This document shows, piece by piece, positions 7,883-11,841 of a stretch of DNA of 64,000 nucleotides. The DNA lies in the NCBI GenBank assembly GCA_050701515.1, contig JBOGDB010000104.1; one strand, written 5' to 3'. Each line of letters starts with the position of its first letter. The first letter of the stretch is position 1. Below the pieces are notes generated by a model. The model was not told where the DNA came from. It did not search any database and was given only the letters and a program-made list of their open reading frames with translations. The translations under genes and the position numbers were made by a program. This DNA comes from Mycobacterium sp. (GTDB lineage: Bacteria > Actinomycetota > Actinomycetes > Mycobacteriales > Mycobacteriaceae).

Positions 7883-8758
7883 GTGAGCGTCCCCGCGCGC
7901 CCGGTACCGCTGTTCGCAGACATCGACGATGTGGCCCGACGGCTGTCCGAAACCGGCTATCTGCCCGACACCGCAACGGCCACCGCGGTGTTCCTCGCCG
8001 ACCGGCTGGGTAAGCCGCTGTTGGTGGAGGGCCCGGCCGGCGTCGGCAAGACCGAATTGGCCCGCGCGGTCGCGCAGGCCACCGGCTCGGGCCTGGTGCG
8101 GCTGCAGTGCTACGAGGGTGTCGACGAGGCCCGCGCGCTCTACGAGTGGAACCACGCCAAGCAGATCCTGCGGATCCAGGCCGGGTCCGGCGATTGGGAC
8201 CAAACCAAGACCGACGTCTTCTCCGAAGAGTTCCTGTTGTCGCGTCCGCTGCTGACCGCCATCCGCCGCAGCGAGCCCACCGTGCTGCTGGTCGACGAGA
8301 CCGACAAGGCCGACATCGAAATCGAGGGTCTGCTGCTCGAGGTGCTCAGCGATTTCGCGGTGACGGTCCCCGAGCTGGGCACCATCACCGCCGAGCGCGC
8401 GCCGTTCGTCCTGCTCACCTCCAACGCCACCCGCGAGCTGTCGGAGGCGCTCAAGCGGCGTTGCCTGTTCCTGCACATCGACTTCCCCGATCCCGACCTG
8501 GAGCGCCGCATCCTGCTGTCGCGGGTGCCCGAACTGCCCGAGCACCTGGCCGACGAACTGGTGCGCATCATCGGCGTGCTGCGCGGCATGCAGCTGAAGA
8601 AGCTGCCGTCGGTGGCCGAAACCATCGACTGGGGGCGCACCGTGCTGGCGCTCGGGCTGGACACCATCAGCGACGAGACCATCGCGGCCACCCTCGGGGT
8701 GGTGCTCAAGCACCAGTCCGATAATCAGCGTGCCAGCGGGGAGCTGAGGCTGAACTGA
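7883..8758 (+). CDS. MoxR-family AAA+ ATPase (Rv2426c-like)
   Basis: Walker A EGPAGVGKT, Walker B LLVDETDK, and ALKRRC. Confidence 0.9.
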   Translation: MSVPARPVPLFADIDDVARRLSETGYLPDTATATAVFLADRLGKPLLVEGPAGVGKTELARAVAQATGSGLVRLQCYEGVDEARALYEWNHAKQILRIQAGSGDWDQTKTDVFSEEFLLSRPLLTAIRRSEPTVLLVDETDKADIEIEGLLLEVLSDFAVTVPELGTITAERAPFVLLTSNATRELSEALKRRCLFLHIDFPDPDLERRILLSRVPELPEHLADELVRIIGVLRGMQLKKLPSVAETIDWGRTVLALGLDTISDETIAATLGVVLKHQSDNQRASGELRLN

Positions 8759-10200
8759 TGGCCGTCCGTCGCACCCGCCCGCCGCAACCACTGGCGCCAA
8801 ACGGCATCCCGGGGCACCTGGTGGAGTTCGTGGAAGCCCTGCGCGGGCAGGGGATTTCGGTGGGGCCATCGGAAACCGTCGACGCCGGCCGGGTAATGGC
8901 CACTCTGGGACTCGGCGACCGGGAGGTGCTGCGCGAGGGCATCGCGTGCGCGGTGCTGCGCCGCCCCGACCACCGCGACACCTACGACGCCATGTTCGAC
9001 CTGTGGTTCCCGGCCGCACTCGGATCGAAGACGGTGCTGGATGACGACGATGACAGCGGTGCGCCCGACGGTCTCCCGCCCGAGGACGTCGAGGCGATGC
9101 GGGCGGCGTTGCTCGACCTGTTGGCGGACAACCCCGACCTGGAGAACCTCGACGAGCGGCTGGCGGCGATGATCGCGCAGATTGTCGAGGCCTACGGCCG
9201 CTACAGCTCCAGCCGTGGCCCGTCGTACTCGTCGTATCAGGCGCTCAAGGCGATGGCCCTGGACGACCTCGAGGGACGGCTGCTGGCCGGGTTGCTGGCG
9301 CCCTACGGCGACGAACCCACACCGACCCAGGAGCAGATCGCCAAAGCAATTGCTGCGCAGCGTATCTCGCAACTGCGCAAGATGGTGGAAGCGGAGACCA
9401 AGCGCCGCACCGCCGAACAGCTGGGCCGCGACCATGTGCAGATGTACGGCATACCGCAGCTGGCCGAGAACGTCGAATTCCTGCGCGCGTCCGGTGACCA
9501 GCTTCGTCAGATGCGCCGAGTGGTTGCCCCGCTGGCGCGCACCCTGGCCACCCGGCTGGCCGCGCGTCGCCGCCGGTCCCGGGCCGGCGAGATCGACCTG
9601 CGCAAGACGCTGCGCAAGTCGATGTCGACCGGTGGCGTCCCGATCGACGTGGTGCTGAAGAAGCCGCACCCGGCCCGGCCCGAGCTGGTGGTGCTGTGCG
9701 ACGTCTCCGGCTCGGTGGCCGGCTTCAGCCACTTCACGCTGCTGCTGGTGCACGCGTTGCGGCAGCAGTTCTCCCGCGTTCGCGTCTTTGCGTTCATCGA
9801 CACCACCGACGAGGTCACCGAGCTGTTCGGCCCCGACGCCGACCTGGCCGTCGCGGTGCAGCGCATCACCCGCGAAGCGGGCGTGTACACCCGTGACGGC
9901 CACTCCGACTACGGCAACGCGTTCGTCTCGTTCCTGGACAAGTACCCGAACGTGCTGTCGCCGCGCAGCTCGCTGCTGGTGCTCGGCGACGGACGCAACA
10001 ATTACCGCAACCCGGAAACGGACCTGCTGGAGCACATGGTCACCGCGAGCCGGCACGCGCACTGGCTCAACCCGGAGCCCAGGCACCTGTGGGGCAGTGG
10101 CGACTCGGCGGTGCCGCGCTATCAGGACGTGATCACCATGCACGAATGCCGGTCGGCCAAGCAGCTGGCGGTGGTGATCGACCAGCTTTTGCCCGTCTAG
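8758..10200 (+). CDS. vWA (CoxE-like) domain protein (Rv2425c-like)
   Basis: MIDAS-like CDVSGS, LGDGRNN and WLNPEP; translationally coupled to the MoxR gene. Confidence 0.9.
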   Translation: MAVRRTRPPQPLAPNGIPGHLVEFVEALRGQGISVGPSETVDAGRVMATLGLGDREVLREGIACAVLRRPDHRDTYDAMFDLWFPAALGSKTVLDDDDDSGAPDGLPPEDVEAMRAALLDLLADNPDLENLDERLAAMIAQIVEAYGRYSSSRGPSYSSYQALKAMALDDLEGRLLAGLLAPYGDEPTPTQEQIAKAIAAQRISQLRKMVEAETKRRTAEQLGRDHVQMYGIPQLAENVEFLRASGDQLRQMRRVVAPLARTLATRLAARRRRSRAGEIDLRKTLRKSMSTGGVPIDVVLKKPHPARPELVVLCDVSGSVAGFSHFTLLLVHALRQQFSRVRVFAFIDTTDEVTELFGPDADLAVAVQRITREAGVYTRDGHSDYGNAFVSFLDKYPNVLSPRSSLLVLGDGRNNYRNPETDLLEHMVTASRHAHWLNPEPRHLWGSGDSAVPRYQDVITMHECRSAKQLAVVIDQLLPV

Positions 10201-10215
10201 GTAACCGCCGGCCCT
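10180..10215 (+). repeat. 36-bp direct repeat, copy 1 (vWA gene 3' end plus 15 nt)
   Basis: gaccagcttttgcccgtctaggtaaccgccggccct is 35/36 identical to 11146-11181. Confidence 0.95.
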
Positions 10216-10226
10216 TCGCCCGGCTC

Positions 10227-11131
10227 ACTGTGCGGTTTCGTACGGGACATGCCGTGACGGCGTACGAATCGGCACGGTCGCGACGGTGTCAGCACCGATC
10301 TATCCCGGGGTGTACGTACCGCGAGGCGTTGACCTCTCGGCAGTCCAACGATCTCGGGCCGCATGGTTGTGGTCTCGCCGACGAGGCGTCGTCGCCGGGT
10401 TGTCTGCAGCCGCGCTGTTGGGCGCGAAATGGATCGAGCCGGGACTACCCGCCGAGCTTGTCCACGAAAACAGGCGTGCACCACCGATGATGATCATTCA
10501 TACCGACGAGCTCGCGACCGGCGACACACAGTTGCTCAACGCCGCGAAGGTGACGACGGCTGCCCGCACCGCTTTCGATATCGGCAGGCGCCTCGCGCTC
10601 GAACCCGCTGTTCAGCGCATCGACGCCCTGATGAACGCGACCGACGTCAAGGTCGGCGACGTCGAGGCGGTGGCCGAACTACACCCCGGCGTGCGCGGCC
10701 TACGGCAGCTGCATCGGACAATGCCGTTGGTCGACGGTGGCGCCGAGTCACCCTACGAATCGCTGACGCGTCTGTTGTTGATCCGGGCCGGCTTTCCGGC
10801 GCCGCAGACCCAGATTCCTGTCCTTGACGAGTACGGAGTTGTCATCGCCCGCATCGACATGGGATGGCCCGAATTCCTCGTCGGTGTCGACTTCGAGGGT
10901 GCGCATCACTGGACCGATCCAAAACAGCGGACCTGGGACGTCGAGCGATACACGCGATTACCTGAGCTCGGTTGGCAGGACATCAGGGTGACGAGCGGCA
11001 TGCTGTACAGAAGTCCGAGCGTCATAGTCAGCCGCGTCGGCGCGGCCCTCATCGCGCGCGGGTGCCCCAAGACGTGGTGAGTGTGCGGATTTGTACACAC
11101 CAACGGCGTGTTGCGTACGAAACCGCACAGT
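10227..11131. mobile_element. Candidate mini mobile element: DUF559-like nuclease gene between REP-like hairpins with perfect 18-bp terminal inverted repeats
   Basis: actgtgcggtttcgtacg (10227-10244) is the exact reverse complement of cgtacgaaaccgcacagt (11114-11131). Each end also pairs with a degenerate inner arm (10261-10278, 11080-11097). The unit is flanked by 36-bp direct repeats. Confidence 0.6.
10286..11080 (+). CDS. AbiEi-antitoxin-like / DUF559 (Vsr-like PD-(D/E)XK) protein, possibly N-terminally truncated
   Basis: Motifs AWLWSRRRGVVAGLSAAALLGAKW, TTAARTAFD, ESPYES and RIDMGW...VDFEG. Confidence 0.75.
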   Translation: MSAPIYPGVYVPRGVDLSAVQRSRAAWLWSRRRGVVAGLSAAALLGAKWIEPGLPAELVHENRRAPPMMIIHTDELATGDTQLLNAAKVTTAARTAFDIGRRLALEPAVQRIDALMNATDVKVGDVEAVAELHPGVRGLRQLHRTMPLVDGGAESPYESLTRLLLIRAGFPAPQTQIPVLDEYGVVIARIDMGWPEFLVGVDFEGAHHWTDPKQRTWDVERYTRLPELGWQDIRVTSGMLYRSPSVIVSRVGAALIARGCPKTW

Positions 11132-11145
11132 CGACGGACACGGTT

Positions 11146-11181
11146 GACCAGCTGTTGCCCGTCTAGGTAACCGCCGGCCCT
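11146..11181 (+). repeat. 36-bp direct repeat, copy 2
   Basis: gaccagctgttgcccgtctaggtaaccgccggccct still reads DQLLPV-stop. Confidence 0.95.
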
Positions 11182-11199
11182 CCCGTAAGCTGCCTAAAC

Positions 11200-11841
11200 G
11201 TGGCTAATCGACGCAGGCTGGGTGTGATGGGCGGGACGTTTGATCCCATCCACAACGGCCACCTGGTCGCCGCCAGCGAGGTGGCCGATCTGTTCGGTCT
11301 CGACGAAGTGGTGTTCGTGCCGACCGGTCAGCCGTGGCAGAAACACCATCGCGATGTCACCGCCGCCGAAGACCACTATCTGATGACGGTGATCGCCACC
11401 GCCGCCAATCCCCGGTTCTCGGTCAGCCGGGTCGACATCGACCGCGGCGGGCCCACCTACACCAAGGACACGCTGGGCGATCTGCAAGCGCTCAACCCGG
11501 ACGCCGACCTGTACTTCATCACCGGTGCCGACGCGTTGGCGACGATCCTGTCGTGGCAGAACTGGGAGGACATGTTCGCCACGGCCCGGTTCGTCGCGGT
11601 GAGCCGGCCCGGCTACGAGCTGGACGGAAAGCACATCGAGAAGGCGCTCAAGGAGCTGCCCGAGGGCGCGCTCACGCTGGTCGAGGTGCCTGCCCTGGCG
11701 ATCTCCTCGAGTGACTGCCGCAAGCGCGCCGAGGAGAACCGTCCGATCTGGTACCTGGTGCCCGACGGCGTGGTGCAGTACGTGTCCAAGCGCGGCCTGT
11801 ACCGTAGCCCCGCCCTGGCGATGCAGGACCAGCAGCGATGA
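11200..11841 (+). CDS. nadD: Nicotinate-nucleotide adenylyltransferase
   Basis: [11 protein letters not shown] and ISSS motifs. Probably leaderless (TAAGCT upstream of GTG). Confidence 0.95.

Follow-up and report, generated by a model that had tools for sequence, protein, structure and literature searches.

A 930-bp cassette, built of a hairpin, a single open reading frame (ORF) and a second, inverted hairpin, was found between two housekeeping genes, a vWA (CoxE-like) gene and nadD, in a 64,000-nucleotide stretch of Mycobacterium sp. DNA (the window). The window corresponds to C104:2987-66986, a contig interval of a metagenome-derived draft genome (G000; 4.4 Mb, 334 contigs). The cassette is an insertion: relatives carry the site empty, and on both sides of the cassette lies a 36-bp direct repeat that duplicates the 3' end of the vWA gene. 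It belongs to a large mycobacterial family of nuclease-fold genes framed by paired hairpins, and its landing at this site is young. The repeat is read here as the footprint of the recent insertion, left by a staggered break followed by fill-in; judged from sequence, this reading has about an even chance of being right.

The two copies of the repeat (10180-10215 and 11146-11181) are identical at 35 of 36 bases, the sole mismatch being T at 10188 against G at 11154. The observed score was reached by none of 3000 shuffles in a shuffle test of the local alignment, and the 36-mer occurs at these two sites only in the 4.4-Mb assembly. The left copy contains the last six vWA codons (DQLLPV), the TAG stop (10198-10200) and then a 15-nt spacer; the right copy repeats DQLLPV, the stop and the 15 nt just upstream of nadD. 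An earlier note on this DNA had reported the match and its coding content, and both the sequence and the shuffle test bear it out. The C-terminus DQLLPV* is kept in relatives, which share G with the right copy at the mismatched position; the change, a synonymous one (CTG to CTT), therefore arose in the coding left copy once the sequence had been duplicated. The features of the locus are listed in Table 1.

Table 1. Features of the vWA-nadD locus, in window coordinates
Feature	Coordinates	Strand	Description
vWA (CoxE-like) gene	8758..10200	+	Pfam VWA_CoxE E=2e-59; last 18 coding nt and stop lie within the left repeat
Left copy of 36-bp duplication	10180..10215	+	Functional vWA 3' end and 15-nt spacer
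11-nt junction segment (TCGCCCGGCTC)	10216..10226	+	Between left repeat and left hairpin; absent from empty sites
Left terminal hairpin	10227..10278	+	Outer arm 10227-10244, loop with GACATGCCG at 10246-10254, inner arm 10261-10278
ORF, 264 aa	10286..11080	+	AbiEi-like half and C-terminal Vsr/DUF559-like PD-(D/E)xK nuclease fold; 5'-truncated
Right terminal hairpin	11081..11131	+	Outer arm 11114-11131; adjoins TGA stop 11078-11080; loop motif on minus strand
14-nt junction segment (CGACGGACACGGTT)	11132..11145	+	Between right hairpin and repeat; not conserved among copies
Right copy of 36-bp duplication	11146..11181	+	Non-coding relic of vWA end
nadD	11200..11841	+	Pfam CTP_transf_like; conserved upstream CCCGTAAGCTG motif begins right after the right repeat

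The locus was compared with 36 genomes of the same genus and then with 15 selected genomes. None of them carries the C104 cassette at the vWA-nadD junction, and the only cassette seen there in relatives, that of G036, is a different one (60% amino-acid identity). A junction with a single repeat copy and no cassette was found in G028, G178, G016, G113, G323 and others; these five, the closest relatives at the locus, have short spacers of 32, 11, 69, 102 and 109 nt, respectively. The G028 junction (...GACCAGCTGCTGCCCGTCTGA GCGCACCCGCCCCT CCCGTAAGCTGG...) aligns base for base to one repeat copy and then to the nadD upstream motif. Every examined relative with a short spacer has one repeat copy, and retention of both copies without the cassette was not seen in the relatives examined. 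The prediction that deletion of the insert and one repeat copy restores a vWA-nadD junction is thus borne out by junctions present in relatives, and alignment to relatives, as had been proposed, recovered the empty site. Exact-pattern scans of metagenome and genome collections found neither an empty allele nor a second record of the species, and exact matching of the vWA and nadD proteins likewise gave no hit.

The insert spans 10216-11145. Its two hairpins, each of about 52 nt, were recognized by fold prediction and as an inverted repeat whose outer arms (10227-10244 and 11114-11131) are complementary at 18 of 18 positions; the inverted repeat of the insert ends extends to 59 nt at 76%. The left hairpin carries the loop motif GACATGCCG and the right hairpin its complement, so that the two are inverted relative to each other. 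Both terminal hairpins are conserved in relatives. Perfectly matching outer arms recur across species (18/18 here, 25/25 in G036, 22/22 in G323 and up to 57 nt elsewhere), and compensatory changes affect seven of the 11 predicted stem pairs (24 hairpin copies). A search of Rfam with positions 10000-11400 gave no match. On sequence grounds, the 11-nt junction segment may be either an outer end of the element or filler. The earlier note's proposal that a small element inserted here holds, with hairpin-defined ends added to it as a feature that the note did not contain.

The family was searched for across 301 genomes of the genus, the source genome included. The closest cassettes have at most 77-78% DNA identity to the C104 cassette, and the best proteins about 80%. 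The closest copies occupy one orthologous locus (T2), with the arrangement GlpR, cassette, acetyltransferase-MoeA; this site is empty in the present genome (C106, around position 2960). In a maximum-likelihood tree the C104 cassette groups (95/92) with that of G140 and five T2 cassettes, branching outside the T2 ones, a position that agrees with the local species tree, itself poorly resolved. One cassette lineage is therefore seen at three different loci in three lineages, so either the cassette has relocated or several copies have been lost differentially. The C104 cassette is separated from its nearest counterparts by a synonymous divergence (dS) of 0.84-1.15, with a ratio of nonsynonymous to synonymous divergence (dN/dS) of 0.14-0.20. 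Set against this dS, the difference of one base in 36 between the repeat copies makes the landing at vWA-nadD far younger than the split of the lineage. The sequences thus point to a cassette lineage that is old, under purifying selection and was located elsewhere until recently; the cassette may have come from a different position in this lineage or from a different organism.

It is highly improbable that the cassette is an old resident lost by relatives or an assembly artefact of the metagenome-derived draft. The draft is in 334 contigs and the vWA-nadD spacer is hypervariable (11 bp to ~9 kb), as such explanations would have it, but with a dS of at least 0.84 to the nearest cassettes, long residence cannot be reconciled with a repeat that has a non-coding copy and is still 35/36 identical. 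Every short-spacer relative examined has a single copy, and an assembler cannot make both junctions unless they are present in the reads.

According to the favoured reading, the 930-bp cassette would have entered the 33-bp vWA-nadD spacer region, where breaks in the two target strands would have been staggered by 36 nt, and the single-stranded overhangs left by them would have been filled in after joining. Fill-in would duplicate the vWA 3' end and the spacer without disturbing the reading frame of vWA or the sequence upstream of nadD, so that a break with this stagger explains both the duplication and the two intact neighbours. The agent may have been a nuclease of the family, with cuts at the hairpins and the target or close to them; this is a tentative proposal, to which we give somewhat less than an even chance. 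The nuclease would probably have been supplied in trans by an intact paralog of the same hairpin type on contig C281.

Several observations weigh against this reading. The ORF of the C104 copy is truncated, and the repeats do not adjoin the hairpins but stand 11 and 14 nt away from them. Target duplication was looked for at ~110 further cassettes, comprising 17 paralogs of this genome, 19 loci of the subfamily and 80 loci of named genomes; no 20-40-bp duplication was found at any of them apart from repeats derived from the hairpins, and a fixed target-site duplication is therefore not demonstrated for the family. The test of the paralogs for such flanking duplications that the earlier note suggested was thus negative. 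Copies also share at most 78% nucleotide identity and lie mostly at orthologous loci, which makes movement rare. Decay could, however, have erased duplications at other copies, as most cassettes are old.

Host repair alone could also have produced the locus. A fragment carrying the cassette, released by breakage at the palindromic hairpins or taken up from outside, would have been captured by mycobacterial end joining (Ku/LigD fill-in) at a chance staggered double-strand break, or by a template switch where a fork had stalled, and the nuclease would have played no part. Fill-in and templated additions are established at mycobacterial non-homologous end-joining junctions. The uniqueness of the 36-bp duplication among the ~110 cassettes, the filler-like look of the unconserved 11- and 14-nt segments and the truncation of the ORF all agree with such a capture, which we nevertheless regard as rather unlikely: the captured piece ends ~11-14 nt from both hairpins, which would be surprising for a random fragment, and the vWA-nadD spacer and other gene ends have repeatedly gained hairpin elements and, in G036, a second, unrelated cassette. 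These repeated arrivals point to a targeted process.

The regeneration of a gene end by duplication, as at many att sites, would also follow if a tyrosine or serine recombinase encoded elsewhere had integrated a small circle with a 36-bp attP equal to the vWA 3' end. The earlier note had compared the repeat with attL/attR or with a very long target-site duplication, and had observed that no integrase or transposase is present; the latter holds for the 930-bp insert (ORF list and Pfam). An att-type event is very improbable, since the insert encodes no recombinase, the 36-mer has no further occurrence in the genome and the 6.5-kb segment that fills this spacer in G024 consists of metabolic genes only, with no integrase. 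Core repeats of this kind are lacking at the other cassettes of the family.

The ORF was characterized by profile and structure searches. Pfam PF18741 (REase_MTES_1575) scored 28 bits against a gathering threshold of 38.2, below the cut-off, and PF04480 (DUF559) matched paralogs only, with scores of at most 13.9 against a threshold of 20.6. The PADLOC AbiEi model matched with E=2e-8 for this ORF and 4e-9 for a full-length relative; searches of NCBIfam and of PDB sequences gave no match. The structure search used an AlphaFold model of the closest full-length relative (mean pLDDT 72). The C-terminal domain of the model resembled the catalytic domain of I-Bth0305I (PDB entry 3r3p; probability 0.99, TM-score normalized to the target 0.72) and the DUF559 structure 3hrl (TM-score 0.61), with weak Foldseek E-values. 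Residues D218, D229/E231 and H234/H235 are invariant or nearly so among homologs. The DUF559 label of the earlier note therefore falls under the Pfam thresholds and agrees with the predicted fold. No second gene for an AbiEii nucleotidyltransferase partner was found inside or beside the cassette.

Compared with three aligned relatives, the ORF has lost 110 nt, comprising the ATG and 28 codons (junction 10292/10293), and the GTG at 10286 is no more than a possible new start; the listed homologs are all of ~290 aa, against 264 aa here. The C104 copy either lost its start codon and the 28 codons after landing or arrived without them. The remaining 260 codons have a dN/dS of 0.14-0.20 against relatives, so the gene was functional for most of its history. 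Either the deletion would be recent or the shortened protein may still work from the GTG start. Mobilization of the element by its own DUF559 nuclease, as had been suggested, is doubtful for an ORF that lacks its N-terminus.

More than 3,554 homologs are present in the database, and the named ones are 'hypothetical' or 'DUF559' proteins of Mycobacterium or Mycolicibacterium. A tblastn search of this genome yielded 15-17 paralogs with 28-71% identity. At least seven cassettes, counting that of C104, are framed by paired hairpins of their own type (C281, C321, C227, C153, C45, C1 and C104); the C281 paralog is intact and shares the hairpin type of the C104 cassette. At 53 of the 80 loci from named genomes the two flanks shared inverted or direct repeats derived from hairpins, some of the repeats being perfect over 26-57 nt. 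The literature on DUF559, on AbiEi with inverted repeats, on mycobacterial REP and on the hairpin sequences yielded no description of such cassettes, and the family is apparently undescribed.

Other members of the family vary in arrangement. The framing hairpin modules (33-60 nt) form direct repeats in C45, C321, C227 and C153 but inverted repeats in C1. The C45 cassette, both of whose hairpin modules are element-borne, is absent from 20 of 20 relatives checked, and the C321 cassette is found among 20 relatives in G302 and G085 only. At a contig end of Mycobacterium sp. URHB0044 (L131) a nuclease gene lies between 238-nt direct repeats that are 100% identical and contain two hairpins each, which may be a tandem array or a scaffold-end assembly effect. 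Short hairpin arrays, with about three repeats spaced ~95-115 nt apart, occur downstream of the nuclease gene at L190 and L194. At L165 the cassette is flanked by 100% identical inverted repeats of 300 nt, which resemble two copies of a different mobile element.

Hairpins also occur away from nuclease genes. About 45 REP-like hairpins with a GACACGCCG loop and covarying stems were found in this genome, mostly right after stop codons at gene ends, the main stem types being GAGCGTGCGTGTC and GCAGACGCAAAAG. Examples are located on C78, C251, C167, C36, C112 and C186 and at C1:76653. About three solo copies are of the hairpin type of the C104 cassette (C250, C281:4838 and C130). All genome matches to the outer arm are hairpins and none is the end of an insertion sequence (IS); in relatives, solo hairpins are present at the sites that lack a cassette.

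A similar hairpin has been described in mycobacteria as TRIT ('tuberculosis Rho-independent terminator'), which is restricted to Mycobacterium, conserved in sequence, located at gene termini where it overlaps stop codons, and present in 147 copies in M. tuberculosis (PMC3152330). A later proposal makes it a substrate of RNase III (PMC13714241). The present hairpins have conserved GACACGCCG loops and are placed at gene ends, and the right hairpin of the cassette abuts the ORF stop; they fit the TRIT description (PMC3152330) in these published features. The difference is that descriptions of TRIT (PMC3152330, PMC13714241) mention no associated protein gene or mobility.

The cassette shares features with several known systems and differs from each. 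Its one enzyme gene framed by inverted hairpins, the solo relatives at gene ends and the cognate hairpin types specific to each paralog recall the REP/REPIN-RAYT systems ('REPtrons') of Proteobacteria, in which the gene of an HUH Y1 (IS200/IS605-like) transposase is framed by inverted hairpin repeats with related solo copies at gene ends. The enzyme here is not HUH Y1; it is an AbiEi-like protein with a PD-(D/E)xK (Vsr-like) nuclease according to the Pfam, PADLOC and fold searches. The hairpin type of the C104 cassette also has only about three solo copies in the genome, and to our knowledge a 36-bp target duplication is not a feature of REP/RAYT. With insertion sequences and miniature inverted-repeat transposable elements the cassette shares terminal inverted repeats, a target site that relatives carry empty and a long direct target duplication; insertion sequences with long target duplications include the IS1634 family and IS1549 of M. 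smegmatis. Unlike these, the cassette has no DDE or other transposase, no parent IS with its ends in the genome and no near-identical copies, and its duplication is not seen at other copies.

A single, selfish-looking nuclease gene and the modelled fold of the C-terminal domain, which appears to be the same, are common to the cassette and I-Bth0305I. Homing copies such a gene into a cleaved homologous allele and is not known to duplicate the target, whereas here 36 bp of target are duplicated and the unit has hairpin ends. The N-terminal half matches models of AbiEi, proteins that bind inverted repeats; the differences from AbiE (type IV) systems are the absence of an AbiEii partner, the fusion to a nuclease fold and the palindromes on both sides of the gene.

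A broader proposal is that AbiEi-PD-(D/E)xK cassettes form a new class of mycobacterial mobile DNA, in which the nuclease would recognize its cognate hairpins, move the cassette and seed solo hairpins of the TRIT type, and staggered cleavage would leave long duplications that regenerate gene ends, the 36-bp repeat being the first fresh footprint. We regard this as speculative and on balance improbable. TRIT hairpins occur in mycobacteria including M. tuberculosis, their origin is unexplained and their function is disputed (terminator versus RNase III substrate); hairpins that fit their description here flank the nuclease-fold genes of a very large family. The majority of the cassettes are old and lie at conserved loci, and for these mobility is only a guess. 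At the C104 locus, in contrast, the insertion is young and clean: its empty sites are known, its junctions are exact and its duplication can be measured. Such a recent trace of movement is rare, and it makes the mechanism (what cuts, where and with what stagger) directly testable. The hairpin ends and the vWA-nadD target supply a substrate pair for biochemistry in strains used in the laboratory.

The vWA-nadD spacer is a hot spot whose contents vary by species. Genes for PE-PPE-type hydrolases, a methyltransferase, GntR and a cyclase were observed in it, as were solo hairpins (G113, G323 and G140), the different nuclease cassette of G036 and the 6.5-kb metabolic block. The CCCGTAAGCTG-N-GTG sequence ahead of nadD (11182-11202) is conserved across species and includes TAAGCT at 11187-11192, which looks like a -10 box positioned for a leaderless GTG start; a strict promoter and terminator scan called no consensus promoter or terminator, the TAAGCT motif included. 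Two diverged copies of the whole proA-moxR-vWA-nadD stretch are present in G178 (a 70%-complete genome; contigs C18 and C19), and this bin is probably a mixture of two strains.

Three further leads concerning the T2 locus were set aside. A degenerate duplication of the acetyltransferase gene end around T2 cassettes was dropped, its score having been reached by 1667 and 2782 of 3000 shuffles. The C106 site was examined as a donor: it is empty here, and cassette divergences track flank divergences. The C104 cassette branches outside the T2 clade and the site holds no footprint, leaving relocation from it as only one possibility. A CCAGCTG motif common to both targets could be due to chance (rough p ~0.07) and is absent at other loci. 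At T2 itself, G016 (L109) has a short sequence like the footprint of a lost cassette, G140, G028, G094 and G178 have a solo hairpin of another type, and in G269 (L112) such a hairpin is apparently split by an insert of ~500 nt.

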